A DNA stretch of 64,000 nucleotides from assembly GCA_964450435.1 (NCBI GenBank), contig CAYVCX010000008.1:6548-70547 (forward strand). Direction: 5' to 3'. The notes beneath the pieces were generated by a model. It made no database searches, had not been told where the DNA came from, and worked only from the letters and a program-made list of their open reading frames with translations. The position numbers and the translations under genes were made by a program. Below, piece by piece: positions 29,938-60,929 of this stretch. The stretch comes from an uncultured Anaerolineales bacterium. Its GTDB lineage: Bacteria > Chloroflexota > Anaerolineae > B4-G1. Position 1 is the stretch's first letter. The number at the start of each line of letters is the position of its first letter.

Positions 29938-29946
29938 GAGACCACG

Positions 29947-44143: not shown

Positions 44144-46198
44144 TCACTCGCCCTCCCCTATGATCTCTTCAAAGGCAACCAGAAACGCATCGTTCTCCTG
44201 CTGCGTACCGACTGTTACCCGGATGAATCCGGGCGGCAACTGGTTCGAGACGTCCGAGACCAGCACGCCTGCGTCCCTGAGTCGTCTAGCCATATCAAGG
44301 ATGTCGCTTCGGACCAGCAGGAAGTTTGTGTGACTGGGGATGACGCGCGCGCCCGCGTCCCGCAGTGCCTCCCGCAGACGCTCCCTCTCCACCACCAGTC
44401 GCCCCACGGTATCCCGCGCGTAACCCGGGTCCTCCAGTGCTTCTATCCCCGCATGCAGGCTGGACTGCGGAAGAAACGCGTAGAAACCGATGAACGCCTC
44501 CCGAAAGGCCTCTCCCACCACTGCGTACCCCACCCGGGCGCCCGCCAGGCTGAAGGCCTTGTCCAGCGTCCGCGTCACCGCCAGGTTGGTATACTCCTCC
44601 ACCAGGTCGGCGAACGAGCCGTGTGGCCTTTCCTCGCCCCGCGCGCTCACCCGGGAGAAGTCGTGGTACGCCTCGTCGATCACCAGCAGGGTCTGCTCGC
44701 TCTGCAGCACCGCCCGGACCGTCTCGCGATCCAGCAGCACCTGGCCGGTGGGGTTGTTCGGGTTGTCGATGATGGCGAGGCACGGTCCTTCCAGCGCGCG
44801 CATCAGCACCTCCGGCTCCAGCGCGAACGTGGGTGGGCTCAGCCGCAGGCCGGTCCACCGCGCTGCAACCTGCCGCACCGTCTCCACGGTGGGAAGAAAC
44901 GTCGGACTCACCGTGATCACCATCCGCTCTCCCCCGAAGGCGTGGATCATCTCCCGCAGCAGAAGGTCGGAGCCCGGTCCCATCACGAGCTGCTGCTCCG
45001 GAACCCCGGCGTAGTGCGCGAGCAGCCCTCGAAACCGGGCCAGATCCTCCGGATCGGCGTACCGGTTCAGGCGAGACAATCCTCTCCCGGCCCCCGCGAC
45101 GACGTGCGGCGGGGGAAGGGTGGTCACCTCGTTCCTGTCGAGCCGGATGGGCTGCTCTACCATACTGACCTCCACCATCATCCATTCTCGGTAGCCGACC
45201 GTGACCTTGACGTACCCCGACACCGTCTCATCGAGGGTCGCGTCACCCGTATCCACGCGCAAGCACTCGAGCTTGTTCACCTTACGTCGGGCCCCCACGA
45301 CGATCACGTTCTCCTTGCCCACCGCCCAGATCACCGTCGGCGTGAACTGCTTGCTCCCCCTTCCGAAGATGAACCCGTTGCCCCCGATGGGGGTCACGAT
45401 GATCTTTCGCTTGCGGTGCTGCTCCAGAAGACGCAGGATGTCCTTTTCGTTCACGTCCTCTCCCACGAGCGTTCCCTCGTGGACCGCGTCCAGCCCCAGA
45501 AGGGTGTTAGAGAGCTCCAGTTCTTCCGTGATGGCGCGCACCGTCGTGCCGGGTCCCAGCAGGTGGAGCGTCTGCGGATCCAGCTCCTCTACGATAGATC
45601 TGGCGATGTCCGCCTTGACCTGCTCGGAGGGTGCGCTGACGTCCGAGGCTGCCTTTGCGGGCTGGAGGGAGGTTCGCACCTCGGGCACCAGGAGCGTACC
45701 GTAGAGCCTGGAGGCCAGCCTGTCGTCCCGGAAGGCCGCCTCGTCGATGTCGAGCACCTCCTCCTCCGTCACCAGAGCCCCGGCGACGAAGGCGTCCACC
45801 ATATCGGCCGTCGCCGCCCACGAAAACCAGCAACTCAACGCCCCGAGCCACCATCGCCCGGGCGATGCGCTTCGTGTGCTGCGCCGAGGTCTCCTCGCCG
45901 ATCTCCCCGATGACCGTGGCCGGTATGCCCATCTCCTGCAGGTGGAGGGCTCCCATCCGACCTAGCGCGGCGAGGAACGCCATCTCGTCCTTCCGCTCCA
46001 GGTGTGCCAGCATGTCCCGCGTCCTCCGGGGTGTGACCGGCTCGGCGCCCAGCTCCACGGCCCTCTCGTGCATCTCTCCGTCAGTCCCCTTGAGTCCAAC
46101 GCTCCCCCCATGCCCGCCACGGGATTGACGATCAGGCCAGCGGTCCTTTTCTTCATCCTGAACTCCCCCCCAGTAGCCATCGCCCCCGGGCGCCCCAC
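44144..46198 (-). pseudogene. frameshift-disrupted fusion gene: N-terminal ATP-NAD-kinase-like (COG3199-type) domain plus C-terminal HisC/CobD-like class-II aminotransferase
   Basis: Three consecutive minus-strand ORFs (45962..46198, 45507..46202, 44144..45838) carry a continuous homology signal. GLIVNPVAGMGG is followed, after a +1 shift, by SVGLKGTDG (the shift falls in a G6 run). LLVFVGGDG is followed, after a shift, by TADMVDAF... The C-terminal part carries the PLP-lysine motif TLDKAFSLAGARVGY and NPNNPTG. Confidence 0.5.
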
Positions 46199-46477
46199 GC
46201 AATAGGTCTCCTCTCGCCCTGCCCGTCGCTTGGGTCGCCTTCCTGCGCCGACCGATATGTCGCGCTCGACCTCACGTGCGTCGACCAGGTGCTCACCCAG
46301 TGCCCGGCGCGCCTCCTACCAATGTGTCCTCTCTTGCATCCCGAACCTTGACCACGAGCCTTCCTTATGCCAGATAAGTCCCCCGGAAAGAGCCGACGCT
46401 CACGATGTGGTCACCCGCCTCGGAGACGGACTTGCCCAGCTGCAGGAAAATCTCCTTCCCCTCCGTGACCTCCAACG

Positions 46478-46657
46478 TCAGGCGCAAACCCGAGCACCCG
46501 CCGGCGAGGCGCACGCCGGATCATGCTCGCAGACGATGTCAATGAGCCTGCCGTCTTCGTCCACGACCGGAAGCCCTCGAAACCCGCGCGTCGGCACCAG
46601 GCCCCAAGGCGTCGCGAATTACTCTGTCTGGTGTTATTGTCACCGGTGGTGAACTCA
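46478..46657 (-). pseudogene. small single-CBS-domain gene interrupted by a 1-nt frameshift
   Basis: Minus-strand ATG at 46657 gives MSSPPVTITPDRVIRDALG. The next frame continues LVPTRGFRGLPVVDEDGRLIDIVCEHD, which is a classic CBS domain. The shift is at a GGGGCC run. Confidence 0.3.
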
Positions 46658-46782
46658 TGCGATGGCGTACAAGCATCGGATTTGTCCCCTTATTGCCGCT
46701 ACGTCGTTTGCCTCAGGGATGGTCGGACCCAGCCGGCACCGTGTGCTCCGCGCCTCTCTTGCTCGCCGTCCCTCGTTCTATC

Positions 46783-47022
46783 TCAGTCGCGTCGGCACGC
46801 ACCGCCGGCAGAACACGGCGGCGCGTCACATCGTTCGTCGCGACCGCAGCAGGTCTGCCCCGTGACCCGAGCTGTCCGCCCGCTCAATACCGTGGGTGCG
46901 GAGAGCAGCTTCTTCAGCGACGCACTGCCGCACTCCGGACAGGTGACCGCGCCTCTCCTCCGCACCAGCGTTTCAAACGTCGTCCCACAGATGTCACAAC
47001 GATATTCATAGATCGGCATCGG
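46783..47022 (-). CDS. FmdB family zinc-ribbon protein
   Basis: MPIYEYRCDICGTTFE...CPECGS motif. The internal M of track ORF 46783..47109 is the likely start. Confidence 0.6.
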   Translation of the reverse strand, partial: PMPIYEYRCDICGTTFETLVRRRGAVTCPECGSASLKKLLSAPTVLSGRTARVTGQTCCGRDERCDAPPCSAGGACRRD

Positions 47023-47395
47023 TGCCTCCTCGCCCTCCTGCAAACTCGATGTCCAGCTCCGGCGGATGCAGCAGCGTATTGGGAAGCGTGGCGTGGCTTG
47101 CCACGGCAACCAGACGCCGCCTCATGCCCTCATCTGGTTCCGGGTCCAGATGGAGCGTCGCCCTCAGTACGCCTATGCGGCGCGCACCCGGAACCTCGTT
47201 GTACGCCATCTCCAGGCTCAGGTGTTCGACCGCCACGCCGTGCAGCCTGCACGAGTTCAGCACGAACTCCTCCACGGACGCGGCAAACGCCGCCGCAAAG
47301 AGTCCCGGCGCGTTTGTCGCTGTGCTTCCGCCCCCATCCTCCGGTGCTGCATCGACGACCACGGTATGCTCGTTCACCGTCGCCAGGAAGCGCAT
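47006..47395 (-). CDS. OsmC/Ohr family protein
   Basis: TNAPGLFAAAFAASVEEFVLNSC core resembles the OsmC peroxiredoxin-like fold. The assignment is weak. Confidence 0.45.
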   Translation of the reverse strand: MRFLATVNEHTVVVDAAPEDGGGSTATNAPGLFAAAFAASVEEFVLNSCRLHGVAVEHLSLEMAYNEVPGARRIGVLRATLHLDPEPDEGMRRRLVAVASHATLPNTLLHPPELDIEFAGGRGGTDADL

Positions 47396-47461
47396 CGTCC
47401 ACGTGTTCCACGATTAGCTTCACGCCGACCACCTCCGTGGTCATCTCCCCGCCCTGCCTAC

Positions 47462-47947
47462 CTAGCGTCCCCGCCTGCGGTGCTGTCTCCGAGCCCCTCG
47501 ACCGTTCGCCCTCCCGGGTGCGCGGGTTCCCCCCCTTGTCATAGGAGGCGTCCCGCGCCCCTCCGACGGCTCTGCGAGCCAGCGGCTGACAGCTCGCGCC
47601 AGCGCGTGGGCGGCCCGCACAAGAAGCCCTACCCCGACCTCCGTGACCGCCGGCCCGGCGGTCTCAACCAGAGGACGCGCACGCTCGACCGCGGGAGCGA
47701 GCCGCCCCTTGGTCCGGCGTGCCGCCACCGCCCGCTCCTCCGCCCGGACCAGCTCCCCATGCACCACAGGGTGTATCGCGTCCTCAGGGCAGACCTCGAG
47801 GCAGGCCCCGCAACCGGTACACATCTCCTCCGCCACGTGAGCCTTACCGTCCACCAGGGCGATCGCCCCGACGGGGCAGGCCTCAACGCAGGCGCCGCAC
47901 CTGGTACAGCGCTCCGTGTCTATCCATACCACCTGGTCGTTAGCCAT
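47462..47947 (-). CDS. 2x[4Fe-4S] ferredoxin with basic C-terminal tail
   Basis: CTRCGACVEACP and CTGCGACLEVCP motifs. Confidence 0.7.
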   Translation of the reverse strand: MANDQVVWIDTERCTRCGACVEACPVGAIALVDGKAHVAEEMCTGCGACLEVCPEDAIHPVVHGELVRAEERAVAARRTKGRLAPAVERARPLVETAGPAVTEVGVGLLVRAAHALARAVSRWLAEPSEGRGTPPMTRGGTRAPGRANGRGARRQHRRRGR

Positions 47948-48001
47948 CTGTTCCTCCCTACGCTAACCGCCTTTCCTCTGCCTCCAACGCATCCCCCCTG
48001 A

Positions 48002-48565
48002 TCACCTGCCCTTTCCCAACCCCTGAACCAGCTGTTCGAGGACGGGTTGGTCGGCGAACGATCCGCCCCCGATCGCACTGTTAGGGCAGGCAGCGACGCA
48101 GCCACCGCAGCCCATGCAGCGATTGTGGTCCACCGTCGAGACACGTGTGCCTTCCTGGACCGCCAGGGAAAGCGCGTCGTACGGACATAGTTCCACACAG
48201 TTCCCACAGCCGGAGCAGAGGTCAGAATCCACCACGACGGTCTCCAGCGGCGACGTGTACCCTGACTCCAGGGCCAGTTCACGAAGTGCGCCGATGACAT
48301 CAGAGATGTGGACCTCTTGTGGGCAGCCAGCGTAACACAGGTCACAGGCCGTGCAATGCCAGACCGTCATGTCCTCAAAGACAGCCCGGCGCATGCCCAG
48401 GAGGGCCCTGTGAAACAACCGGCGAGGATTGTACGCTTGGTCGCGCCAGGGGATGATGCACCGGCTGACACACGTCCCACAGGCGTAGCACGCTCGCAGG
48501 CTCTCGGCGCCGGGGGCGAGAGGGAGCTCATCCTGGAAGCCCGTGACGGTTGGGTCTACATGCAT
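48002..48565 (-). CDS. HdrC-like iron-sulfur protein fused to a 2x[4Fe-4S] ferredoxin domain (four clusters predicted)
   Basis: CYACGTCVSRC...CTACDLCYAGCP is HdrC-type. It is followed by CSGCGNCVELCP and CMGCGGCVAACP. Confidence 0.55.
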   Translation of the reverse strand: MHVDPTVTGFQDELPLAPGAESLRACYACGTCVSRCIIPWRDQAYNPRRLFHRALLGMRRAVFEDMTVWHCTACDLCYAGCPQEVHISDVIGALRELALESGYTSPLETVVVDSDLCSGCGNCVELCPYDALSLAVQEGTRVSTVDHNRCMGCGGCVAACPNSAIGGGSFADQPVLEQLVQGLGKGR

Positions 48566-48704
48566 TAGTCATCGCTCCTTCAACGCGATCGGCGACTTCC
48601 CCGCCAATCATGGCCCGCGCACGATCTCCTCGCTTCCTCGCGTACGATCGAGTCCGTGCGCTTCAGCGGCTGATGCTTGTTTGGGTATCGTTTCTTCCGC
48701 TACA

Positions 48705-49724
48705 TCACGACCGTCCCGTGGTCGCGACGCCCCTCCCCGGGGACACAGCCAGGAACCGCTCCGCCTCCATCGCGGCGTTCGCCCCGTCTGCGGCTGCTGA
48801 CACCACCTGCCGGAAACGCCGGTTCTGAACGTCGCCTGCGGCGAAGACGCCCGGCACACTTGTCTGTTGTCGTTCGTCCGTCGCGACATAGCCCCGGTCG
48901 TCGAGGGCGACCTGATCGACGAATAGCTCCGTCTGCGGCACTGTACCCACATAGATGAACACACCGTCGGCCTCAATGACCTCCGTCTCATTATCCTTCC
49001 CGTTCAGCACCCGCACGCCGGTCACCCTCTTCTCCCCCAGGATCTCCTTCACCACGCTGTTCCACACAAACGCCATCTTCGGGTTGGCGAAGGCCCGATC
49101 CTGGTAGATCTTCGTCGCCCGCAGTTCGTCGCGCCGATGGACGACGACTACCTCGCGGGCGAATCTGGTCAGGAACAGCCCTTCGTCCAGAGCGCTGTCG
49201 CCACCGCCGACGACCACGACGCGCTTGTCCTGATAGAAGAATCCGTCGCAGGTGGCGCACGTGGAGACTCCCCGCCCGAAGAGCCGGGCCTCGCCGGGCA
49301 CGCCCAGCCGTCGCGGGACGGCGCCCGTAGCCACGATCACCGTACGACCCTGGTAAACCTGTCGTCCGGTCCGCACCGCCAGTCGCGAGTTGGAGAAGTT
49401 GACCTCTGTTGCGGCGTCGTGCACAATCTCTGCTCCGAACCGCTCCGCCTGGAGGCGAAACCGCTGAGCAAGCTCCGATCCCTCGATGCCCTCAGGAAAT
49501 CCCGGGAAGTTCTCGATACGGTTGGTACTCGACAGCTGACCACCCATCGCTGGGCCTGCCAGCACGACGGTCGCCAGGCTGGCGCGACCGGCGTAGATGG
49601 CGGCGGTAAGGCCTGCCGGCCCGGCTCCAAGGATGGTCAGGTCGTACCTGTGGACCTCGTCGGGCTTAGCCTCTCCTGATTCTCTAGCCTTCTGGTCAGG
49701 GGCTGTCAAGTTGAAATCGAGCAT
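48705..49724 (-). CDS. trxB: thioredoxin-disulfide reductase (NADPH-dependent, CATC active site)
   Basis: FAD site ILGAGPAGLTAAIYA. Redox-active CATCDGFFY. NADPH site VVGGGDSALDEG...HRRDELRA. Confidence 0.75.
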   Translation of the reverse strand: MLDFNLTAPDQKARESGEAKPDEVHRYDLTILGAGPAGLTAAIYAGRASLATVVLAGPAMGGQLSSTNRIENFPGFPEGIEGSELAQRFRLQAERFGAEIVHDAATEVNFSNSRLAVRTGRQVYQGRTVIVATGAVPRRLGVPGEARLFGRGVSTCATCDGFFYQDKRVVVVGGGDSALDEGLFLTRFAREVVVVHRRDELRATKIYQDRAFANPKMAFVWNSVVKEILGEKRVTGVRVLNGKDNETEVIEADGVFIYVGTVPQTELFVDQVALDDRGYVATDERQQTSVPGVFAAGDVQNRRFRQVVSAAADGANAAMEAERFLAVSPGRGVATTGRS

Positions 49725-49749
49725 GTTGTGTCTCCTTCCCTTACCGGAC

Positions 49750-50181
49750 TCACAGGAACAGCTCGTCCTGGATGGGACTAGGCCCCAAGTCGGTGATCTG
49801 TCTGTCGAATTCCCTCACCACCTGGGCAAACCGCGGAGCCTCAGAGGATGAGATCCAAGAAAGCCGCAAGCGATCCCCCATCTCCAGCTCCAAGGTATCG
49901 AAGATGGACTTGAGCAGCGTTGTTCGCCTTCGCGCCTGCAAGTTCCCCGTCTGGTAGTGACATTGGCCGGGCCAACACCCGCTGATCAGCACCCCGTCCG
50001 CTCCCAGGAGGAACGCAGTGAATACGAACAGTGGGTCGACTCGACCGGAGCACATCACGCGGACGACCATGACTGAAGGCGGCATCTTGAACCTGGACAC
50101 GCCGGCCGAATCGGCGGCGGCGTACGTGCACCAGTTGCACAGGAATCCTACAATCGTCGGTGTGAGTTTTCGCTCTTCCAT
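49750..50181 (-). CDS. mvhD: hydrogenase iron-sulfur subunit MvhD/FlpD-like
   Basis: IVGFLCNWCTYAAAD...VRVMCSGRV...GADGVLISGCWPGQCHYQTGN is the canonical MvhD motif set. Confidence 0.75.
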   Translation of the reverse strand: MEERKLTPTIVGFLCNWCTYAAADSAGVSRFKMPPSVMVVRVMCSGRVDPLFVFTAFLLGADGVLISGCWPGQCHYQTGNLQARRRTTLLKSIFDTLELEMGDRLRLSWISSSEAPRFAQVVREFDRQITDLGPSPIQDELFL

Positions 50182-50189
50182 ATCTCCCC

Positions 50190-51332
50190 CTATGTCGCCA
50201 CCTCAGTGAACTCTTCTTCTTCAAACGTCCTCAGCGGAATCTCCTCGCCCACGTCTCTCCCCGGCTGATAGTCGAAGACGGCCTGAGCGGCCGTTCCCAC
50301 TTTGGAGAACATCGTCGAGATCGGGATGTCCGCGGGACACACGTCCGTACACATACCGCATCCCACACACGAGATAGCCATATGGGCCATCCGCCCGAGG
50401 TGGAAATAGACGGTATCGGATGGCACCCGGAGCCCTCCTTTCCTGACCGCTTCTCCCTCGTAGAATGCCACTGGACGCTCGCAGTTCTGAGAATCGAAAT
50501 AGCACAGGCGGCAATAGCAGATTGGGCACACCGTCTTGCAGCCGTGGCAGCCGATGCAGCGCCCAAACGTGTGGATCAGCTGCTTCAGGCCGACTCCGAC
50601 TCGGGCGAAGAGTTCCTCTCGGAAGGCTTCGCGCTCATCGTGGGAGCGTTCGAGCGCCTCGCTGTCCAACTTTCCCGAGACGGACGTCCCCTCCATATCG
50701 CTTGCGAAAGCCGCTCCCTTCTCGGTGTTCAGGTGGAGCGTGCACTGCGCATGGAGATCTGCCCCCCCCAGCAGCGCCACCGTGATGTCGGCACCTTCGG
50801 GAACGAAATTCTCGCACGCACGACACGTTGGCCGCACATCGTCGTCCAGCTCACCCTGCTCCACCCCCTCCCAGTACCCGGGCAGCTTCCCCTCCAGACT
50901 GCCGTCGATGCCCATATCCAGCGGGTAGACGCCACCGCAGGTGGAACTGATCAGAAGGAAGTTGTCCTGGTTTCCCTGGTTGAGCTTCAGTAGTTCGATG
51001 AACGCCCGCAACTCGCAGGGTTTGACCACAGCCGCCACTGGCTCAGCGACCGGCCCCTTCAGCGTCAGCCGGGAGAGCAACCCTCCGGCGTTGGCGGGCA
51101 TGAACGGGAGCAGGGGAAGCGTGTCCCCATCCTCTCCGAACGCTTCCGGGTCTCTGAACAGGGAATATGCCACTCCTCCGCTGGGGCCCCCGGTCCTTCC
51201 CAGCGCCAGCACAGCGGTCACCTTGCTGCTTTCCAGGAGGGAGCGCAGCAACTCTCGCACCGTGTGCTCTGCTCCTTTGTTGATGTGTAGCCTTTGCGAT
51301 GCAAAGGCTGACTTGGTTGCTTCCTCAGGCAT
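50190..51332 (-). CDS. FrhB/FdhB family protein (coenzyme F420 hydrogenase/dehydrogenase beta-subunit-like) with C-terminal 2x[4Fe-4S] domain, paralogue 1
   Basis: FrhB-type C-x2-C-x-(D/N)-F...ADI..G motif CRACENFVPEGADITVALLGGADLH. C-terminal CIGCHGCKTVCP and CVGCGMCTDVCP. Strong AGGAGG RBS before the ATG at 51332. The track ORF starts earlier at 51401, but that would overlap the paralogue's 3' end. Confidence 0.6.
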   Translation of the reverse strand: MPEEATKSAFASQRLHINKGAEHTVRELLRSLLESSKVTAVLALGRTGGPSGGVAYSLFRDPEAFGEDGDTLPLLPFMPANAGGLLSRLTLKGPVAEPVAAVVKPCELRAFIELLKLNQGNQDNFLLISSTCGGVYPLDMGIDGSLEGKLPGYWEGVEQGELDDDVRPTCRACENFVPEGADITVALLGGADLHAQCTLHLNTEKGAAFASDMEGTSVSGKLDSEALERSHDEREAFREELFARVGVGLKQLIHTFGRCIGCHGCKTVCPICYCRLCYFDSQNCERPVAFYEGEAVRKGGLRVPSDTVYFHLGRMAHMAISCVGCGMCTDVCPADIPISTMFSKVGTAAQAVFDYQPGRDVGEEIPLRTFEEEEFTEVAT

Positions 51333-52515
51333 CCTGCACCTCCTGGTTTCGGTAGATCTCCACATAGGGCTGTTCCACTTCGTGGAGTTCATCCATCTCA
51401 TAGGACACTAACGGCAGCGGATCCCGAAGGCTCACTCCCGCCACGTATCCCAGTGCCTTCTGCGCTCGATCCCCCAGCAGGCTGAACACCTGGCCGACCG
51501 GGATGTCCATTGGGCAGGCATCCTCGCACGCGCCGCACGATACGCACGACAGGGCCATGTGCGATGCCCGTCCAATGTGAAACAGCAAGGTGTCCGGCGA
51601 GAACCTCAGTGCTCCTTTGCGCTCTGCTCGCGCCAAGTAGTTCTCCGGGGGGAGCTTCAGCGCTGCCGATTCGAAGTAGCATTGGCGACAGTAGCACACT
51701 GGACACACCCGCTGGCAGTTGTGGCAGTTTATGCAGCTGCTGAACACGCCCAACAGCTTCTCCGCCCCGGCAATTGCCTCCTGCAGGTCTGCCTGCGCCT
51801 GCCGACGTCGCTCCCTCTGTGCCTGTTCAACCTGCTCCACCCGCGCGCCCCAATCCGTCAGCGCCGTGTTCAGGGAGTTGGCCTGCTGGGCCTCGTCTGG
51901 GGCGGGCAGGTCCATCTGCTCCAGGATGCGCTCTCCCTTGGTGCTCCCTGCGACGATAACTGCCGTTCCTTCCGCGCATCCCAGCGTGCCCACGTGCAGG
52001 TCCGAGCCGGGTGCCTGTCGGATGCTGAAGTGATCGCAGATCTGGCACGTCGACCGCATCGGCGAGCGGTCCCATTGTGAAGAAGCCTCCGCAAAGTAGG
52101 CCGCGTTGGCGACAGGGTCCTCAAGATAGTCCCCCAGCGGCAGCACGCCGGGGCAGTCCACAGTCATCAAATATACGTTGTCCAGATGTGCTTGCTCAAG
52201 CTTGCTCAGCTCGATCGCGGCCCGTGCCTCGCAGGGCCGCACGACCGCCGCGATTCGCTTGTTCGGCTTCCCGCGCATCGTCAGGCGACCGATTGCCTTA
52301 CTGCCCTGGACGGGCATCACGGGCGGTAGAAGGGAGGCACTATCAAGGATAGCCGGGTCCTGCAGCAGTAGGTAAGCGAACGAGTCCCCGGCCGGCGTTC
52401 TCACAGGTATGAGAACTGCATCAAAGATTCTCTTGTTCAACGTCTCCTTCAACCAGCCGATGAACGCCGCCTCAACGCCGTCGTCTGCTGCCAACACAAT
52501 ACCGTTGTCACTCAT
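51325..52515 (-). CDS. FrhB/FdhB family protein with C-terminal 2x[4Fe-4S] domain, paralogue 2
   Basis: CQICDHFSIRQAPGSDLHVGTLG motif. CINCHNCQRVCP and CVSCGACEDACP. ATGA overlap with the upstream mvhD-like gene. Confidence 0.6.
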   Translation of the reverse strand: MSDNGIVLAADDGVEAAFIGWLKETLNKRIFDAVLIPVRTPAGDSFAYLLLQDPAILDSASLLPPVMPVQGSKAIGRLTMRGKPNKRIAAVVRPCEARAAIELSKLEQAHLDNVYLMTVDCPGVLPLGDYLEDPVANAAYFAEASSQWDRSPMRSTCQICDHFSIRQAPGSDLHVGTLGCAEGTAVIVAGSTKGERILEQMDLPAPDEAQQANSLNTALTDWGARVEQVEQAQRERRRQAQADLQEAIAGAEKLLGVFSSCINCHNCQRVCPVCYCRQCYFESAALKLPPENYLARAERKGALRFSPDTLLFHIGRASHMALSCVSCGACEDACPMDIPVGQVFSLLGDRAQKALGYVAGVSLRDPLPLVSYEMDELHEVEQPYVEIYRNQEVQDA

Positions 52516-52943
52516 GTGTCGCTCCTTGTCTTCAGCGGGTTAGGACCCAGGCTCGTGATGTGCCGGTTGAACTCAGCGGACGTGTCCACAAACCGCCGTC
52601 CTTCGCCGTGCGCCACGTAGCGGAACCACACGCGCTCCGGCTCGAGACCCAGCGTGTCCAGCAGGCTCTTGACCAGCGCGACACGCCTTCGCGCGCGGAA
52701 GTTGCCATCGTCGTAGTGGCAGTCACCTGGGTGGCATCCGCTGATGACCACGCCGTCTGCCCCTTCAATCAGCGGGCGGACGATGTGCACCGCCGGCAGG
52801 GCGCCAGTGCAGTTGACCCGCGACGGGATCACGTTCTCCGGATAGCGCAGGTGATGGGCGGCGGCGGTCTCCGCCCCGCCGGAGCCACACCAGCTGCACA
52901 TGAAGTAGATGATCTTAGGTACGAACTCGTGTTCCTCGCTCAC
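52512..52943 (-). CDS. MvhD-like hydrogenase iron-sulfur subunit, paralogue 2
   Basis: YFMCSWCGSGGAE...RVNCTG...GADGVVISGCHPGDCHYDDGN. Confidence 0.65.
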   Translation of the reverse strand: MSEEHEFVPKIIYFMCSWCGSGGAETAAAHHLRYPENVIPSRVNCTGALPAVHIVRPLIEGADGVVISGCHPGDCHYDDGNFRARRRVALVKSLLDTLGLEPERVWFRYVAHGEGRRFVDTSAEFNRHITSLGPNPLKTRSDT

Positions 52944-52951
52944 ATTTCACC

Positions 52952-55900
52952 TCACACCAGTAGAGCATCGAGCGCGGCTACGGACTGCTCACCTTTAAAG
53001 TCCTGCAGATAGGACGCGTTGTTGGGACACGTGGCCACGCACGAACCACACGAATCGCAGAGGAAGGGGCGGATCTTGACCACCCGCTCGATCTGGTCAA
53101 TGACTCGCGCGCCGTAGGGACACACGTCCACACACACGCCGCAGCCCATGCACAGGGATTCGTGTACAGCGGCGACAAACATCTTGTTGGGAGGAGGCAT
53201 CTGATCCTTACCGATGACCACCAGCGCGCGACCGACCGCGTCCTTTGCGGTCAAGATCGTCTCGTCGAATGATCGCGGCGAGTGCGCCAGTCCCACCGGG
53301 AAGATGCCGTTGCTCCCCAGCTCGAAGGGCTTGGTCAGCTTCTTGATCGCCTCTTCATACGGGTAATTGCTGATGTCGCTGGAGAAGAAACCCTCGTAGT
53401 CCAGCGGATAACCCAGCAGCTCAGAGAGAGCCTCGTTGTTCTCTGCGTCCGGCACAATCCCCGTGCTCAACACCACCCAGTCCGCAGGATGGGTTTCCCC
53501 TTTGGTGACGACCTCCAACCCGGCCTCGTTCCTCCGCACCTCGGGATATCCGGTCTCCACGTCGTCTCCCGGGAAACGGATGAACGAAACCCCTGCCTCT
53601 TTGGCCAGTCGGTAGTAGTCCGTCTTTCCATAGCTTGCGATGTCGCGGTAGAAGACTCTGACCTCGGCTCCTTGCTCCCGGAGCAAGATGGCGTGCTCCA
53701 ACGCCTGGTTGCAGCACAGGCGGGAGCAGTACGGTACCTCCGGGGTTCTCGATCCCACGCACTGGATCATCGCCACGTGCTTGGCGGTCTCTCCGCCCTT
53801 CATTCTTTCCGCCAGCTCCGCCTGCGTCATCACGGCCGGATCTTCCCCGTAGAGGAAACCCTGCGGCAGGGATTCTTGCGCCCCCGTCGCTACGAAGATC
53901 ACACCCGCTTCCGCCGAGACAGGGGTCGCGGGGGTGTTCACGACCACCTGGTAATTCCCTGCGTACCCATCCACCTGGCTCAGTTCTGCTTGCGTGTAAC
54001 AGGTGATATTGTCCGAGGCGGTCACGCTAGAGATAAGTCTTTTCACGTACTCCCGCTGTCCCTCATCCAGGTACTTCGTCTGACCGCCCAGCTCGCTCTC
54101 GCGCTCCACCAACACCACGGCGAACCCATTGGCCGCGATCTCGGTGGCCGCAGTCAGCCCGGCCAGCCCGCCGCCGACGACCAGTGCCTGTCCGTTGAAC
54201 GTGTCCACAGATGGACGGACGTGTCTCCCGCGCTTGACCTTCTCCACTGCGCCCCGGATCAGCGCCAGCGACTTCATCAACATCCTCTCCGGATCTGTGT
54301 GAACCTGAATCACGTCTTCCCTGAAGCGCAGGTACTCACATAGGAGAGGGCTGAGGCCAGCTGTCATGACGGCCTTGTTGTACTTCCCTTTCTTCTGCAG
54401 GGGAGTGCAGGTGGCCAGGACAACCCGGTTGACGCCTGATGCTTCGATGCACTCCGTTGTCGCCTTGATCGTTGGGCCGGTGCAGCACCCCTCGATGACC
54501 TCCGCGTGGCTGACGCCCGGCAGTGTCTGCACGCGTTCCACCAGTCCCGGCAGATCAATCCGTTCATCGAACTGGCCGAAGCAACTACAGATGAACACAC
54601 CGACGCGTGCGAGCTCACCCGCTACGTCGCGCAGCGGTGGGGCAGGGCCGGGTTTCACGTTTTTCTCTCCCAGGTATGATTGCATCTCCGTCAGCGCTGC
54701 GCAGCCGTCCCATACGGTCTCCGGATTCCCCTTGGGGCCCGTCAGTTCTCCAACGGCAAAGATCCCATCCACGTCGGTCTCGCAGCACGAAAAGGGTCGC
54801 CGGCGGCAGAACCCATTGTCGTCTGCCTGCACGCCGGTCAGCCGTGACAGCTCGTTCATCTGCGACGGCGGGCTCTGCCCGGTGACCAGGATGGCGAGCT
54901 CAACGGTCTGCGTGCACGATTCCCCGTCTACGGACGTGTAATGGATTGTCGCTTCCTCAACGGTATCGTCGGGAACGATGCTGAGCGTCTCCGCCCGCTC
55001 CACACGCACCCCGGCATCCAGCGCTTTCTCGTACCACTGATGGTGTCCCTTGCCTATCCCCCGGTAATCGTGCAGGAAGACGGTCACCTCGGCCTGCGGC
55101 AGGATCTCCCTGAGACGGACCGCCCGGTAGATGGCGCTCACGCTCAGGTTGTAGTTCTCGTACTCGACCCCCGGTCGGTTGAAGTGCGGCGTGACGATCA
55201 CGGCGAACGTCTGCGGCATCCTGCCAGACGGCAGGCACACCGAGTCACGTACAAAGTTCGTCAGCAGGGAGCGCCTGGCCACCTCGGAGTTGCGAATGAC
55301 GCTCGGGCCTTGCCCCAATCCAAAATCGCTCAGGTCCTCATCGCTCGGCTCCTCGAACGCATCGGCTAGGACGATCGCGCCCACGTCGGCCTCCATTGCT
55401 TCCTCGGGTCGCTCGACCTTGAGCGCGCCGGTGGGACACACCTCCTCGCATGCACCGCAGCGCGTGCAGTGCTCGAAGTCGATCAGGTAGCAATTCTCCC
55501 AGCCCGCCTCGGGGATCACGCGGATCGCCTTGCCGTCATCCACCTCGACGGGACAGACCTCGATGCACTGATCGCACTCCGTGCAGGCGAAGTTGTTGAC
55601 CGCCTTGTCTCTCTTCTTGAACTTGACGTGGAAATGCCCCGCCTCGCCGGAGACCGCCAGCAACTCCGCGTTGTAACAGTCCTGCATCGCGCCGCTGGCC
55701 TTGAATGCGCGCTGGGGCATATGCCCGCAGATCCAGCAGAAGTCGAGGGGCAACTGGGCCAGGGCCTGATACTTCTCCTCGTCCACGTACGAGCCACGGT
55801 TGAGCAGGATGAACTTATGCCCGCGCTTGCCAAGGGCGTACGCCGCTCGATAGCCGCCTAGATTGGTTCCATAGATCAACACCGTACTCTCATTTGGCAT
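52952..55900 (-). CDS. hdrA: HdrA-like FAD/iron-sulfur oxidoreductase, double-length (982 aa) with internal and C-terminal ferredoxin domains
   Basis: N-terminal HdrA-like region with inserted 2x[4Fe-4S] (CTECDQCIEVCP, CTRCGACEEVCP). Second Rossmann/FAD site ALVVGGGLAGLTAATEIA. Multiple Cys clusters. C-terminal CMGCGVCVDVCP and CDSCGSCVATCP. Confidence 0.7.
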   Translation of the reverse strand: MPNESTVLIYGTNLGGYRAAYALGKRGHKFILLNRGSYVDEEKYQALAQLPLDFCWICGHMPQRAFKASGAMQDCYNAELLAVSGEAGHFHVKFKKRDKAVNNFACTECDQCIEVCPVEVDDGKAIRVIPEAGWENCYLIDFEHCTRCGACEEVCPTGALKVERPEEAMEADVGAIVLADAFEEPSDEDLSDFGLGQGPSVIRNSEVARRSLLTNFVRDSVCLPSGRMPQTFAVIVTPHFNRPGVEYENYNLSVSAIYRAVRLREILPQAEVTVFLHDYRGIGKGHHQWYEKALDAGVRVERAETLSIVPDDTVEEATIHYTSVDGESCTQTVELAILVTGQSPPSQMNELSRLTGVQADDNGFCRRRPFSCCETDVDGIFAVGELTGPKGNPETVWDGCAALTEMQSYLGEKNVKPGPAPPLRDVAGELARVGVFICSCFGQFDERIDLPGLVERVQTLPGVSHAEVIEGCCTGPTIKATTECIEASGVNRVVLATCTPLQKKGKYNKAVMTAGLSPLLCEYLRFREDVIQVHTDPERMLMKSLALIRGAVEKVKRGRHVRPSVDTFNGQALVVGGGLAGLTAATEIAANGFAVVLVERESELGGQTKYLDEGQREYVKRLISSVTASDNITCYTQAELSQVDGYAGNYQVVVNTPATPVSAEAGVIFVATGAQESLPQGFLYGEDPAVMTQAELAERMKGGETAKHVAMIQCVGSRTPEVPYCSRLCCNQALEHAILLREQGAEVRVFYRDIASYGKTDYYRLAKEAGVSFIRFPGDDVETGYPEVRRNEAGLEVVTKGETHPADWVVLSTGIVPDAENNEALSELLGYPLDYEGFFSSDISNYPYEEAIKKLTKPFELGSNGIFPVGLAHSPRSFDETILTAKDAVGRALVVIGKDQMPPPNKMFVAAVHESLCMGCGVCVDVCPYGARVIDQIERVVKIRPFLCDSCGSCVATCPNNASYLQDFKGEQSVAALDALLV

Positions 55901-56124
55901 CTGCCTACCTCCACTGCCTTAGGGCTCAAATGTGTGACTTGAACGGTAACCCGATGGATGACTTCGACGTAACGGACTGAGCTCCGATTTGGCCTCGACC
56001 GGCGTGCTTCTGCTGGGCCTGGATCGTCCATCCGGCCCAGAGATCGAAATCCGGCCTTCACTTCAGAGCGAAACTAGCTTCACTGAGTCTGCTTGCATTG
56101 TGCCCTCCTCATAATGGCGGGTTT

Positions 56125-57396
56125 TCAAAGATCTGATTGCCCCATATGCAACGTCTCTGGGACGGTCGTTAGCAGAGGAATCCTGATGAACAAGTCCACC
56201 ACCAGCGGAACCAGGAACACATATCCCGGGCCCAGCCTCTCCCATATCAACCCGGCCAGGATAGGAGCAGGGATCGTGATCAGCCCTCGAAAGAGACCTT
56301 GCAGGCCACTCCATTTGCCCATCTCCTCCACCGAGACGAGCTCTAACGCCATGGCTCCGCTGACGCCGGAGTTGATGTAGTAGAACGTCCACAGCGCGCC
56401 TGCCAGGATCAACGTCACCGAGCTGAAAGAGAAGATCAGCAGCAAGTGGGACACGTACCACAGGGGAGTCAGAAGGTAGATCACCTTCTTCCGCCCAATC
56501 CGGTCCGCCAGGCGGCCCAGGGGGACGCCGAATACCAGTCGCGTGAGGATGGTCGCCGTTGCCATGGCGCCAAGCACGTACTGATTCGCTCCCTTTACCT
56601 CGTGGGCGAACACCTGAAGGAACGGGAGGGACATAGCAATAGGGAGCGACGTAAGAGAGGAGATGACGACCCACTTCCTCAAAGGGCTGCTGCCCGCGAG
56701 GAGTTGCTTGATCCCGCTGATCAGACCGGGAGTGACCCCTGCGGCGGGCGTGCTTTTGATGTCGCTCAGCCGGGTCGCCACGAGGAGGAAGACGAGCGCA
56801 TAGCCGGCGAAACGCATCGCATACAGGGGTCGGATCCCCTCGAGCGTCACGCCTCCAAAGGCTGTCACCACCGGGGCCGCGAGCAGCGGGGCCATCATCG
56901 AGAGCACAGAGCGGAACGCTGCGCACAGGTTCTGTGCAGTCGCGCGATCCTCGTTCGCCACGGAGTCGACGCTGATGACGCTGCAGCCTGTCCCCGTGAG
57001 CCGCACCGCGATTGCGTAGAGAATCATCGCACACACGATGGCGTGCCAGCCTGGCGCCACGGCGTAGATCAGCGCCACGCCAGCCAGCAATCCCGTTCCC
57101 AGCACGTAGAAGCGCTTGAAGCCGTGCCGGTCGACGAGCCACCCCACCGGTACGGCGATGAGGGCAGCGACCCCGTTGCCGATGCTGTTTACCGTCCCCA
57201 GCTCGACCGACCCCGCTCCGAGCGCCACCGTGTAGATGGAATCGTATGGGGCCGTCAGGTTGTACAGGAACTCGTTCACCGCGGCGCGTGTGACCCCAAC
57301 CCGGTAGTTGTGCTTCTGCCGGTTGATGAACCCAGTGACGCGTCCAACCGATTTGGCGATTGTGCTTGCCGCAGCCCAGTCCTTCGCCTCTTCCAC
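56125..57396 (-). CDS. MFS transporter
   Basis: 12 predicted TM helices with a 6+6 organisation and MFS-like loop motifs. Confidence 0.65.
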   Translation of the reverse strand: MEEAKDWAAASTIAKSVGRVTGFINRQKHNYRVGVTRAAVNEFLYNLTAPYDSIYTVALGAGSVELGTVNSIGNGVAALIAVPVGWLVDRHGFKRFYVLGTGLLAGVALIYAVAPGWHAIVCAMILYAIAVRLTGTGCSVISVDSVANEDRATAQNLCAAFRSVLSMMAPLLAAPVVTAFGGVTLEGIRPLYAMRFAGYALVFLLVATRLSDIKSTPAAGVTPGLISGIKQLLAGSSPLRKWVVISSLTSLPIAMSLPFLQVFAHEVKGANQYVLGAMATATILTRLVFGVPLGRLADRIGRKKVIYLLTPLWYVSHLLLIFSFSSVTLILAGALWTFYYINSGVSGAMALELVSVEEMGKWSGLQGLFRGLITIPAPILAGLIWERLGPGYVFLVPLVVDLFIRIPLLTTVPETLHMGQSDL

Positions 57397-57490
57397 GCTT
57401 CCTGTCTCTATAGATATCTCTTCGCCTGCGGCTCACTCACCGGCAAGCTTCCGGCCCCTTGCTCCGTTCCGACCTCCAGACGAGAAGCCG

Positions 57491-58483
57491 TCACCGGCAG
57501 ACCGTCGTTCTCCCATCGCTCGATCGCTCTGGCTCCCCACGGAGAGGCCTACGCGCACGATTCGGCATACCGGAGGCAGTCGCCAGTGTCGGCCTCAACT
57601 CGGGCGTAGGCTTCGTGCCACCCCCAGGGTACCGGCATCTCCTCATAGAGCGCCTCTCGGCGCGCCCCCAACAGGCACCGTGCCCCCCCATGAAATCGGC
57701 CGTGCACATCACCCGCTGCCCTGTTCTGGATGAGAGACAATCAAGCCACTCCAAGCCCTCCTCGCACCGGAGCAGGTGGTGGTCCAGGATCAGCGTATCG
57801 ACCTCCCGGGCCAGTCGTTCTGCGTTCTTCCAGGCACGCACGCGCCGCCTGCGGCCCACGAAGTGGCAGAGATAGAGGGCTGACCCGCCAACCAGGACGC
57901 TATCAGGCACCCAGTCTAGGATCAACGAGACGGCCTGGTGGTCGAGGAGTTGAATGTCGGAAGCGTGCACGAAGACGGTCCCGTCATCCTCGATGCGGGT
58001 CATCATCACCGTGCCGAGATGCGAATCTGGCTCTCCGTGCGCTACCGCCGGGGAGAAGGCGAGAGCTCCGGGGATCTGCCCGTCGGCGGCGTCCAGAGGC
58101 CTGTCCAGAATGTCGCTCAGGCCCTCGCGACGATCCTTCATGGTGGGGGAGAGACCTTCGTCTCCTTTCACCCACAACTGGGTCGTGTGACAGAGAGTCG
58201 CTGCCCGCAGTGCCTTCAGCTGGTAGGGATTCGCGTCCGGTAGAGGTGCGTGATCGCCGTGAAGGTGGCTGATCACCACGTCGCTCGCTGCCTCCAACCT
58301 TTTCCGGATCTTCGGACGCGCGCACTCGCCGACGGCCACCTGGGCCGGGTGCCGGAGCAGGCCGTGGCGCTCATAGCCTAGCGCCAGTCCAGGGTCAATG
58401 AGGAACCTGCGACCCGCGGCTTCCACGGCACAGCACAAGCCGCGCACGCCCAGCGACTCCGCACCGAGAATCTCAATCTGCAT
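57491..58483 (-). CDS. MBL-fold metallo-hydrolase
   Basis: HLHGDH zinc motif. The last ~60 aa are Arg-rich and look out of frame, so there may be a 3' frameshift. Confidence 0.55.
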   Translation of the reverse strand: MQIEILGAESLGVRGLCCAVEAAGRRFLIDPGLALGYERHGLLRHPAQVAVGECARPKIRKRLEAASDVVISHLHGDHAPLPDANPYQLKALRAATLCHTTQLWVKGDEGLSPTMKDRREGLSDILDRPLDAADGQIPGALAFSPAVAHGEPDSHLGTVMMTRIEDDGTVFVHASDIQLLDHQAVSLILDWVPDSVLVGGSALYLCHFVGRRRRVRAWKNAERLAREVDTLILDHHLLRCEEGLEWLDCLSSRTGQRVMCTADFMGGHGACWGRAERRSMRRCRYPGGGTKPTPELRPTLATASGMPNRARRPLRGEPERSSDGRTTVCR

Positions 58484-58548: not shown

Positions 58549-59889
58549 CTATTTCCGCATCTTCGCCAGGGCCATCTCGGCCGCGTTCACCACGTGGTAT
58601 GCGATAGGCGAGGCGGTTAGCGCCGGATGGGTCCCGATCTGGAACATCGCCATCTCCTCGGCCGTCATGCGGCTCTGCACACAGGCCGAGATCGCGTTGA
58701 TGATCTCGCCGGCGGTCGCATCGCCCATGACCTGGCCGCCCAGCGCCAGACCGGAGTTCCGCTCAAATACCATCTTCACCTTTGTCTGCGCCACGCCGGG
58801 CATGGAGCCAGGGTGGCGGTTCGGTCCTTCGATCGCCACGGAGACCACGTCGTAACCCAAGTCCTCGGCCATCGATTCCGTCAGCCCAGCGGTGGCCAGC
58901 GCATGATCGCCCACCGCCGTCGACCAGACGCCCACCGTGCCGACGTTCTCCCGCTTGATGGCAAACAGATTCGCGCCGGCGATGCGCGCCTCGGTCGAGG
59001 CAATGGAAGCTAACTTGAGGCCCGAGGGCTTCCCACCAAAGAAAGAGACCTTCTCCGCGCAGTCACCGCACGCATAGACGTCGTCGGACGATGTCTGCAT
59101 CGTCCGATCCACGCTGATCCCGCCCGTCGGCCCTGTCTCCAGGCCCGCGCGTTCCGCCAGGTCCACGCTCGCCACGGCGCCTACGCCCATAATCACCATG
59201 TCCGCGTCGATGACTGTACCGTCTGCCAGCTCCACGCGTTCCACGCATCCGTTGCCAGCGATGCGCTCCACCCGTGCTGGAGCGCTCACGGTGACGCCGC
59301 GGGATTCGAGTATCTCCTCCATGGTGACGCAGAACTCCTCATCGTATGCTAACATGAGGCAGTGCGGTAGCATCTCGACGATGGTGACGTTCTTGTCCCC
59401 CGTCTTGTTGATCTCATCCCCGAACTCAATCCCGATGAACCCGCCGCCGATGACCACCACATCCTCGACCGTTTCCAACTCCCTCTGCAGGTCACTCAGG
59501 TAGTCCACGTCTTTGAGAACGGTGTATACCCCGTCCAGATCGATCCCCGGTATGGGGGGCATGGCCGGCTTCGATCCGGTGGCCAGAATCAGCCGGTCGT
59601 AGCCGATTTGAGCTGACCCGGTATCTACTACCTTCTTCTCTGTATCCAGGGCCTCTACTTCCGTGACCAACAGCTCGATGTCGTTCTTCTCAAGCACCGC
59701 ATCCGATATCAAGTTTCTATCCGGTGATCCCACTGTGCCGAAGATGTACGGGATCCCGCACGGGATCAGAACCTGCTCTTCCTTCCGCACCATCAGGATC
59801 GATTTCTCTGGATAGTGGCGTCGTGCTGTGATGGCGGCGGTCAGGCCAGCGGCACTTCCCCCCACGATGACAACGTCAGCCCGTTTCAT
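58549..59889 (-). CDS. FAD-dependent pyridine nucleotide-disulfide oxidoreductase (CoA-disulfide reductase / NADH oxidase family)
   Basis: VVIVGGSAAGLTAA FAD site. Redox Cys in LIPCGIPY. Second Rossmann VVVIGGGFIGIEF. Confidence 0.7.
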   Translation of the reverse strand: MKRADVVIVGGSAAGLTAAITARRHYPEKSILMVRKEEQVLIPCGIPYIFGTVGSPDRNLISDAVLEKNDIELLVTEVEALDTEKKVVDTGSAQIGYDRLILATGSKPAMPPIPGIDLDGVYTVLKDVDYLSDLQRELETVEDVVVIGGGFIGIEFGDEINKTGDKNVTIVEMLPHCLMLAYDEEFCVTMEEILESRGVTVSAPARVERIAGNGCVERVELADGTVIDADMVIMGVGAVASVDLAERAGLETGPTGGISVDRTMQTSSDDVYACGDCAEKVSFFGGKPSGLKLASIASTEARIAGANLFAIKRENVGTVGVWSTAVGDHALATAGLTESMAEDLGYDVVSVAIEGPNRHPGSMPGVAQTKVKMVFERNSGLALGGQVMGDATAGEIINAISACVQSRMTAEEMAMFQIGTHPALTASPIAYHVVNAAEMALAKMRK

Positions 59890-60785: not shown

Positions 60786-60929
60786 TTGCACTCCTCCTGA
60801 CGAGACGTACAGTTCTCCTACCTGCCGGACGAGAGGCATCCGCCCCTCGTCCGCTACGGCGCTCGAGACGGGTGAGGACGTAGACCACGGCAACACCCGC
60901 CCCGAAGATCTTCGTGGACCGCTTGCGCC

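Follow-up and report, generated by a model that had tools for sequence, protein, structure and literature searches.

The 64,000-nucleotide (nt) stretch of contig CAYVCX010000008.1 analysed here (hereafter "the window"), from an uncultured Anaerolineales bacterium, carries ten co-directional minus-strand genes at positions 46783–55900, half of which form a conserved five-gene cassette of the heterodisulfide reductase (Hdr) type, encoding a fused HdrA, an MvhD protein, two FdhB-like proteins (FdhB-like 2 and FdhB-like 1) and a second MvhD protein. The thioredoxin reductase gene trxB that follows is not a conserved component of this cassette, but its neighbour through insertion history. We hold these two points, the identity of the cassette and the separability of TrxB, with high joint confidence. 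An earlier annotation made without database searches (the sequence-only reading) had listed the same ten genes in the same order, and had described an Hdr-type cluster with a double-length HdrA, two MvhD proteins, two FdhB-like proteins and no HdrB; both the list and the description hold, with two start codons corrected.

The conservation of the cassette was assessed in 85 related loci, whose genes were called with a per-locus codon model, labelled by BLASTP against the window proteins and clustered. The codon-usage caller recovered the operon genes of the window and missed the small Zn-ribbon gene; longest open reading frame (ORF) calling was dropped for loci with 61% guanine and cytosine, where antisense and off-frame ORFs were chosen. 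Among the scored candidates, 1047 proteins are homologous to FdhB-like 1 at E ≤ 1e-5, and a relative of this protein is encoded in 387 species-level genomes (pattern scan, one genome per species). The best 80 loci span more than ten phyla, with Anaerolineae, Ignavibacteria, Cloacimonadota, WOR-3, Aminicenantes, Dehalococcoidia, Thermoplasmata and others among their groups. A homologue search with the N-terminal half of HdrA returned 17 matches, ferredoxin-domain words probably saturating the candidates, and was not used for the distribution. FdhB-like 2 and FdhB-like 1 stand in tandem in 73 loci, followed by MvhD in 59, with HdrA directly upstream. Two cassette architectures can be distinguished, with fused or with split HdrA. 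The fused type, ordered HdrA(~980)-MvhD-FdhB-like 2-FdhB-like 1-MvhD, comprises 16 non-redundant loci including the window (a count that leaves out three further loci with identical gene order), hosted by Anaerolineae, Thermoflexales, Ignavibacteria, Acidobacteriota and two unclassified organisms. The five genes stand alone in Ignavibacteria, flanked only by MerR and NifU genes. An hdrC-like gene lies 3' of the cassette in nine Anaerolineae-type loci, some of them without TrxB, and the HdrC-like polyferredoxin usually travels with the cassette in Anaerolineae. Other neighbours vary among the related loci, and include an Mvh-type [NiFe] hydrogenase, an HdrC-HdrB-HdrA(650)-MvhD set, Flx-like sets, fumarate-reductase-like genes, MetV, YeeE/YedE, NifU and a NuoEF/Stn-like set.

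Some smaller genes recur near the cassette. A radical SAM protein resembling that of the window is encoded directly downstream of the cassette in two loci (L030 and L047), accompanied by NifU_N and a 67-amino-acid (aa) Cys-rich protein; these three may be maturation factors for an Fe-S-rich complex. A DUF89-like protein is encoded 6.6 kb upstream of hdrA in the window, and a DUF89-like gene lies directly beside the cassette in L012 (4115–4990) and L037 (11010–11870). We take these three copies to be alike and to belong to DUF89 from reading the sequences themselves, including the N-terminal LDCYPCF motif.

Regarding TrxB, the sequence-only reading called it canonical with an intact CATC motif, in agreement with a TIGR01292 score of 391 bits, above the equivalog cutoff of 343. 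Because the CATC, GGGDSA and HRRDELRA motifs are all present, the protein is a genuine NADPH-type thioredoxin reductase. The same reading had also made it an integral part of the complex, in place of the heterodisulfide site, and here the related loci speak against it. By tblastn, the window and L001 are the only two of the 85 loci with TrxB beside the cassette; a short metagenome contig (L088) adds a third instance, so that the arrangement occurs in three of 88 loci, all closely related. In the closest relative (L006, with a FdhB-like 1 90% identical to that of the window), mvhD is followed directly by the hdrC-like gene with no trxB, an order also found in five other Anaerolineae loci (L007, L008, L010, L012 and L044). 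Conversely, two cassette-free loci preserve the surroundings. L089 encodes DUF5320, Nitro_FeMo-Co, a CoA-disulfide-reductase-like (CoADR-like) reductase, MBL-fold and MFS proteins and, 30 nt later, TrxB, after which come DUF1638, YkoF, a methyltransferase, a ferredoxin, a Zn ribbon and a radical SAM protein, in the same order as in the window. L086 has an L089-like backbone, but with CooC-CooT between MFS and TrxB; it is collinear with the window at 62–83% amino-acid identity, and its metagenome-assembled genome holds a cassette with an hdrC-like gene on a separate contig (L044, 72–90% identity). TrxB orthologues at about 70% identity occur in varied gene contexts. The 161-aa ferredoxin and the Zn-ribbon gene are present in both cassette-free loci; the OsmC-like gene was found only in close cassette-bearing relatives, and in neither L086 nor L089. 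Along with trxB, the ferredoxin and Zn-ribbon genes belong to an older conserved backbone, although the ferredoxin could possibly serve the cassette as electron partner. Because L086 and L089 keep this backbone without the cassette, the latter appears to have been inserted between the MFS gene and trxB of the older locus.

A different account would keep TrxB as a subunit or dedicated partner, with NADPH/thioredoxin replacing CoM-S-S-CoB/HdrB as the high-potential couple. The trxB gene starts 25 nt after mvhD with a strong ribosome-binding site and no predicted terminator between them, the arrangement is repeated in L001 and L088, and cassette-travelling genes (mvhD and the hdrC-like gene) lie on both sides of trxB in the window and L088. 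This last position is unexplained by a single simple insertion. The CoADR-like disulfide reductase and the OsmC-like gene are also nearby, and TusA and DsrE-like proteins in the split sister cluster suggest thiol or persulfide chemistry in the wider family. We nonetheless regard this account as improbable, given the few and closely related loci in which TrxB adjoins the cassette, the Anaerolineae loci that do without trxB, and the MFS-TrxB-DUF1638-…-ferredoxin-Zn ribbon order kept in the cassette-free loci. Moreover, TrxB would need no external electron input, because it has all NADPH-binding motifs and a TIGR01292 score above cutoff; a thioredoxin gene is not adjacent; and thioredoxin, whose textbook potential is about −270 mV, is ill suited as the high-potential acceptor when ferredoxin is to be reduced by NAD(P)H. 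Coupling of the cassette to thioredoxin is thus unlikely, and the case calls for caution in reading function from adjacency, since insertion history explains the presence of TrxB here.

With TrxB set apart, the nature of the complex has to be sought in the five cassette proteins. The two FdhB-like proteins are paralogues (35% identity), for which Pfam gives weak matches to part of FrhB_FdhB_C (22.5 and 36.4 bits). FdhB-like 1 has 15 invariant cysteines, including a CPxCxCxxC motif. Searched against the PDB, the family profile matches the Hdr-bound FdhB/ElpB chains 9t1s_M (2e-48), 8rvu_E (2e-37) and 7bkb_E (3e-35) over nearly its full length, CPxCxCxxC included. For an AlphaFold2 model (mean predicted local distance difference test score 72, mostly above 80 over the N-terminal 250 residues), Foldseek ranks 7bkb_E and 8rvu_E highest (probability 1.0, template modelling score 0.6), ahead of Fsr, FrhB and HCAR. 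We identify the FdhB-like proteins as homologues of Hdr-bound FdhB/ElpB. In the solved system, ElpB oxidises F420H2 at a flavin adenine dinucleotide (FAD), from which electrons pass through [4Fe-4S] clusters to the HdrA terminal domains, on to ElpC (an MvhD homologue) and finally to the HdrA flavin (PMC12350162). The MvhD proteins of the window match PF02662 at 138 and 158 bits (cutoff 22.3), with the cysteines CxxC…C…CxxxxC present. In five Cloacimonadota loci (L048, L056, L057, L071 and L082), an in-frame TGA in the mvhD that follows FdhB-like 1 falls precisely on a Cys position of the SGC.PG.CHY motif, where the MvhD proteins of the window have Cys; these Cloacimonadota relatives are probably selenocysteine-containing. 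The window itself encodes SelB, the selenocysteine-specific elongation factor.

No HdrB was found. A custom hidden Markov model built from six HdrB sequences gave no match in the six-frame translation of the whole 64-kb window, where CCG tripeptides are confined to off-frame ORFs and the tail of the Zn-ribbon protein; the absence of a CCG-domain HdrB noted in the sequence-only reading is therefore confirmed over the whole window. That reading had also remarked that a nearby HdrB, formate dehydrogenase or MetFV would place the operon in a known type, and no such genes occur in the 64 kb: formate dehydrogenase, MetF and hydrogenase genes are missing among the window genes, and a molybdopterin-type or ElpA-like gene is found neither in the window nor in the core cassette of the related loci. 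Membership of the Hdr-Fdh, Hdr-Flx, MetFV-Hdr or Mvh-Hdr types through other genes of the window was ruled out, as such genes are absent.

The fused HdrA is markedly asymmetric. Its domains, mapped by profile searches and by alignment to solved HdrA chains and to the split-type HdrA proteins, comprise Fer4 domains at residues 94–166 and 910–962 and an FAD motif at 572–609. The C-terminal half (C-half) has an N-terminal cluster domain and a C-terminal 2x[4Fe-4S] domain, with neither an inserted ferredoxin domain nor a Cys197-like motif. It keeps the FAD motif VVGGGLAG…LVERE (GGGLAG core, acidic end of beta-2), aligned to HdrA residues 10–242, and the HA4 [4Fe-4S] motif CVGSR..YCSRLCC, in the sequence CVGSRTPEVPYCSRLCC. 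The N-terminal half (N-half) is a TrxR-like scaffold with an inserted 2x[4Fe-4S] ferredoxin domain (the Fer4 domain at 94–166), and the only half with a Cys197-like motif, DFCWIC. Its FAD motif is degenerate, YGTNLGG…LLNRG replacing GxGxxG…E, and the cysteines of the HA4 position are lost. All fused-type loci inspected, Anaerolineae and Ignavibacteria among them, share this degenerate N-half, and the FAD and HA4 motifs of their C-halves are intact.

From these elements a mechanism can be proposed, in which the cassette would encode a soluble flavin/iron-sulfur complex with three redox terminals. By homology with ElpB/FdhB, two of them would be the FdhB/ElpB-like flavin sites, exchanging hydride with a soluble two-electron carrier. 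This carrier is F420H2 in methanogens; here it would more probably be NAD(P)H or another carrier, because to our knowledge F420 synthesis is not known in most host phyla, such as Ignavibacteria, Cloacimonadota, WOR-3 and Aminicenantes. Each FdhB-like subunit would be wired through four [4Fe-4S] clusters and the [2Fe-2S] cluster of MvhD to HdrA. The inserted ferredoxin domain of the HdrA N-half would be the third terminal, passing low-potential electrons to ferredoxin or the HdrC-like polyferredoxin, and the single flavin of the C-half would split or merge electron pairs between the three terminals. Such an enzyme would be Nfn-like, and would need neither HdrB nor a disulfide substrate. An electron-transfer role of the FdhB-like, MvhD and HdrA proteins is very probable. 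We lean, tentatively and at just under an even chance, towards a bifurcating or confurcating oxidoreductase linking two hydride-carrier pools with ferredoxin or the HdrC-like polyferredoxin; bifurcation is plausible but unproven, and any specific substrate named for the enzyme would be a doubtful choice at best.

Several observations weigh against this reading. Lys409 (M. thermolithotrophicus numbering), which contacts the flavin N5, has been proposed as a marker of bifurcating versus non-bifurcating HdrA (PMC12054007). Its position is taken by Glu735 in the window (CCNQALE versus CCMYAMK409 in 5ODC), and is K, R or E in 12, 4 and 4 sequences of the fused-type loci, whereas 80 of the 85 split-type sequences have K. 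The region of Glu356, which positions Lys409, has a plausible counterpart in an 'AELAER' segment; it lies outside the HMMER alignment, so that its register is not fixed. In the Elp-Hdr mechanism, FAD', HA4' and HA5' of one HdrA protomer are served by the mobile arm of the other (PMC12350162). Because the partner N-half here has neither FAD nor HA4 motifs, the canonical geometry of bifurcation is not preserved in the fused HdrA. Furthermore, Pfam sees part of FrhB_FdhB_C and nothing of the FrhB/FdhB N-domain in the FdhB-like proteins, and the docking site for the second MvhD/FdhB-like pair is not derivable from sequence. The sequence-only reading had taken HdrA and MvhD together as hallmarks of bifurcation: both proteins are indeed present, but their value as hallmarks is weakened by the loss of the FAD and HA4 motifs from the N-half and by Glu735. 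The fused form would also lend itself to mechanistic study, as an HdrA that is by nature asymmetric and has a single flavin.

The same features could be accommodated by a non-bifurcating linear oxidoreductase, into which the fused type would have degenerated: a hydride carrier at the FdhB-like flavins would be connected to ferredoxin or the polyferredoxin, and the HdrA flavin would be an ordinary relay or vestigial. The N-half motifs are gone throughout the fused-type loci inspected, the constraint at the Lys409 position is relaxed, and a path from the arm to the ferredoxin domain, as can be deduced from the published Elp-Hdr mechanism, could bypass the flavin, since the mobile-arm and inserted ferredoxin domains surround the lost flavin site. 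FpoF offers a precedent: this FrhB homologue is soluble and functions as an Fd:F420 oxidoreductase (as cited in PMC11176372). The C-half FAD and HA4 motifs are nevertheless intact in all loci inspected, and two FdhB-like paralogues, each with its own MvhD, are kept across phyla and exceed what two terminals need. Moreover, by textbook potentials the reduction of ferredoxin with NAD(P)H or F420H2 is endergonic unless it is coupled. We therefore rate a linear enzyme as somewhat unlikely.

Less probable still, and distinctly unlikely, is that the FdhB-like subunits oxidise F420H2 as in Elp-Hdr, the host making F420. All of the nearest relatives with solved structures (FdhB, ElpB, FrhB and Fsr) work with F420, and some Chloroflexota synthesise it; but the cassette also occurs in the four phyla named above, where we know of no F420 synthesis, and the FrhB fold is also found in ferredoxin-dependent enzymes such as HCAR. 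F420 biosynthesis genes were not recognised among the annotated genes of the window, although 64 kb says little about the genome.

The bifurcating or confurcating enzyme proposed above has to be considered together with its sister, the split type. This comprises 46 loci with the order DsrE-like(117 aa)-TusA(74 aa)-MvhD-HdrA(~425)-HdrA(~560)-FdhB-like 2-FdhB-like 1-MvhD, hosted by Cloacimonadota, WOR-3, Aminicenantes, Dehalococcoidia, Thermoplasmata, KSB1, Aerophobetes and others. It shares with the window an orthologous FdhB-like pair (about 45–55% identity), an MvhD pair and the same two-part division of HdrA domains. It differs in having two HdrA genes, neither of whose products has lost the FAD motif, the HA4 motif or Lys409, in the nearly constant presence of TusA and DsrE-like genes, and in often adjoining HdrCBA, Flx-like, Mvh or fumarate-reductase-like genes. 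TusA (PF01206) is encoded immediately upstream in 32 of the 46 loci and the DsrE-like protein (PF13686) in 29, both families being confirmed by Pfam (e.g., L077, 4564–5165); only 30 loci have enough upstream sequence. YeeE/YedE sulfur transporters occur in four split-type loci (11 loci overall, by tblastn), and rhodanese also occurs. Neither TusA nor DsrE-like genes were found in the 16 fused-type loci, the window included, and these carriers were rejected as part of the window system. The comparison suggests that the split type has a sulfur-carrier link not shared by the fused type. Besides, eight loci (L016, L034, L036, L039, L048, L049, L057 and L077) carry beside the split cassette a second, Flx-Hdr-resembling cluster, ordered HdrA(~1015 aa)-MvhD-(AsrA/FlxC-like Fe-S)-(Fe-S protein)-(AsrB/HydG-like NAD(P)H flavoprotein)-HdrC.

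A sulfur-relay role, attractive for the split type, could be extended to the whole family. TusA/DsrE-like carriers would then bring protein persulfide or polysulfide to the enzyme for reduction, the window having exchanged these carriers for other thiol-handling neighbours. The frequency of the carrier genes in the split type, together with YeeE/YedE and rhodanese, speaks for it. For the window we judge it very improbable, the least likely of the readings considered, in view of the complete absence of the carriers from the fused type. Since the fused type has lost the second flavin that the split type kept, the two may differ in function; and TusA, the DsrE-like protein and NifU could equally be maturation factors for a complex with an estimated ~17 Fe-S clusters. 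A broader proposal would unite the fused and split forms in a new HdrB-less, three-terminal class of Hdr-derived bifurcating enzymes, the FdhB-like pair standing in for both the donor module (hydrogenase or formate dehydrogenase) and the acceptor module (HdrBC), and the split form being tied to TusA/DsrE carriers. This we see as a real possibility, if a doubtful one.

The features of the window are collected in Table 1, with families assigned by Pfam and NCBIfam profile searches of the window proteins.

Table 1. Coordinates of the ten-gene run, the insertion boundary and other genes of the window.
Feature	Position	Strand	Remarks
Fused HdrA, 982 aa	52952–55900	-	Best NCBIfam matches HdrA2/HdrA
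HdrA N-half, residues 1–428	54617–55900	-	
HdrA C-half, residues 429–982	52952–54616	-	
MvhD/FlpD-type [2Fe-2S] subunit (a), 143 aa	52512–52943	-	FlpD 138 bits
FdhB/ElpB-like protein 2, 396 aa	51325–52515	-	Paralogue of FdhB-like 1, cysteine pattern shared
FdhB/ElpB-like protein 1, 380 aa after start correction	50190–51332	-	
MvhD/FlpD-type [2Fe-2S] subunit (b), 143 aa	49750–50181	-	FlpD 158 bits; last conserved cassette gene
TrxB, NADPH-type thioredoxin reductase, 339 aa	48705–49724	-	TIGR01292 391 bits
HdrC-like N-terminus with 2x[4Fe-4S] ferredoxin domain, 187 aa	48002–48565	-	
2x[4Fe-4S] ferredoxin, basic tail, 161 aa	47462–47947	-	Backbone gene
OsmC-like, 129 aa	47006–47395	-	21 bits, under Pfam cutoff 27.5
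Zn_ribbon_8 (FmdB-type), 78 aa	46783–47019	-	Backbone gene
MFS transporter	56125–57396	-	Upstream boundary of putative insertion site
MBL-fold, upstream of MFS	57552–58483	-	Frameshifted
CoA-disulfide-reductase/NADH-oxidase-like flavoprotein	58549–59889	-	TIGR03385 250 bits, under cutoff
Nitro_FeMo-Co	60111–60896	-	Family by match to L086 annotated gene
DUF5320	60930–61316	-	Family by match to L086 annotated gene
DUF89-like	62559–63443	-	
NAD kinase, disrupted	44144–46118	-	
Radical SAM	43174–44121	-	
2-oxoacid:ferredoxin oxidoreductase, four genes (delta ferredoxin, alpha, beta, gamma)	27815–30489	+	Pfam: alpha and beta only
SelB	18045–20084	+	

The start of FdhB-like 1 was placed at 51332 (MPEEATK) and not at 51401, consistent with homologues of 370–380 aa and leaving an 8-nt overlap with the upstream stop; the start of the Zn-ribbon gene was corrected to 47019. 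A 457-aa ORF upstream of hdrA (56063–57436) is an off-frame artefact, the true gene there being that of the MFS transporter. The tight junctions described in the sequence-only reading are found as far as trxB: an 8-nt gap between hdrA and mvhD (a), an ATGA overlap between mvhD (a) and FdhB-like 2, the 8-nt overlap between the two FdhB-like genes, an 8-nt gap from FdhB-like 1 to mvhD (b), and the 25-nt gap to trxB, which holds a GGAAGGAG site; trxB and the hdrC-like gene are 139 nt apart. Because of the 25-nt gap, co-transcription of trxB with the cassette in the window is likely. A scan of 46000–57000 for promoters and terminators gave sites no commoner than in shuffled sequence, and is uninformative on a separate transcription of trxB. 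The HdrC-like protein matches TIGR03290 at residues 24–105 with 72 bits (cutoff 160), and carries an extra ferredoxin domain. The OsmC-like protein has a single Cys, and so does not have the catalytic cysteine pair that we take to be typical of OsmC/Ohr.

Other genes around the operon deserve mention. The homologues of the MBL-fold protein in L001 and L089 match frame -1 as far as 57644 and frame -3 thereafter (57695 to 57552), and the annotated ORF of 330 aa has an Arg-rich off-frame tail; the frameshift is either an assembly error or the mark of a pseudogene. The NAD kinase gene is disrupted, residues 14–113 lying in frame -3 (46118–45819) and 155–368 in frame -1 (45805–45164), with about 40 residues missing and the rest fused in frame to a histidinol-phosphate-aminotransferase-like gene in a 564-aa ORF; in L001 the two are separate genes. 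The backbone of L086 and L089 likewise begins with the Nitro_FeMo-Co and DUF5320 pair; both proteins of the window contain long low-complexity stretches rich in Gly, Arg and Met (GMGRGRGMGRGRG…, GWGRGWGGGWGRGW). The CoADR-like flavoprotein, with a single Cys in IPCGIPY, is conserved upstream in the Anaerolineae backbone and is a remnant in L086. The 2-oxoacid:ferredoxin oxidoreductase probably supplies the organism with reduced ferredoxin.

Hdr-type complexes have a central place in the energy conservation of anaerobes, and their biochemistry and structure are known almost entirely from the HdrABC of methanogens, with donors of the hydrogenase, formate dehydrogenase or Elp kind. Among the hosts of the cassette are many sediment and digester lineages (Anaerolineae, Cloacimonadota, Aminicenantes, Thermoplasmata and others) with an energy metabolism deduced from genomes only, and because the cassette has no HdrB, labels such as "heterodisulfide reductase", "F420 hydrogenase" or "formate dehydrogenase beta" are misleading for its genes. 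If it bifurcates, it would be a new combination of modules among bifurcating enzymes; if the new class is real, enzymes that connect two pools of hydride carriers with ferredoxin would be widespread among anaerobic bacteria and archaea not yet cultured. In a literature search thin on subscription journals, we found no description of a cassette with two FdhB paralogues and two MvhD proteins and without HdrBC, FdhA or ElpA, nor of its breadth, of the fused/split dichotomy with TusA/DsrE or of the flavin-site loss in the fused type, in line with the sequence-only reading, which did not recognise a characterised system.

The nearest known systems are the methanogen assemblies Elp-Hdr (ElpABC-HdrABC) and Fdh-Hdr-Fmd (PDB 8RVU, 7BKB; PMC12350162), where FdhB/ElpB-type and MvhD-type [2Fe-2S] subunits likewise feed HdrA. 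The window differs from them in the absence of the HdrB/HdrC catalytic module and of ElpA/FdhA, in its two FdhB paralogues and two MvhD proteins, and in a fused one-flavin pseudo-dimer instead of a symmetric HdrA homodimer; F420 use is also doubtful in most of the lineages that host the cassette. Tandem or fused HdrA with complementary Cys197 and N-terminal domains has been described in ANME (HdrA3/4, HdrA5/6) and in the Moorella MetFV-HdrABC-MvhD complex (PMC9012536), and termed 'type II' (PMC12054007). The window shares with these the double-length or paired HdrA, one half having the N-terminal cluster domain without Cys197 and the other the converse. However, the order of the halves is reversed, with the Cys197 half first; the ANME paralogues are reported to keep the FAD residues, whereas the N-half of the window has lost the FAD and HA4 motifs; and the partners are FdhB-like only, without HdrBC, MetFV or FdhA.

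FlxABCD-HdrABC of sulfate reducers and QmoABC are, like the cassette, bacterial Hdr-type modules with MvhD-like domains and non-hydrogenase donors. Qmo has no HdrB, but a membrane QmoC, and works with AprAB; Flx has an NAD(P)H-binding FlxA (AsrB/HydG-like) and keeps HdrBC. Neither has FdhB-like subunits, and the Flx-like clusters beside the split-type cassette are separate gene sets. The bifurcating transhydrogenases of the NfnAB/Stn type offer a functional analogy, with two hydride-carrier sites and ferredoxin connected via a central flavin and Fe-S chains; their catalytic subunits are not homologous to those of the cassette, and the likeness would be one of design. The parts (HdrA, MvhD, FdhB/ElpB and HdrC-like) are thus all of known kinds, and the fused asymmetric HdrA has already been noted in genome surveys; the cassette as a whole is an uncharacterised variant of the Hdr-type complexes.

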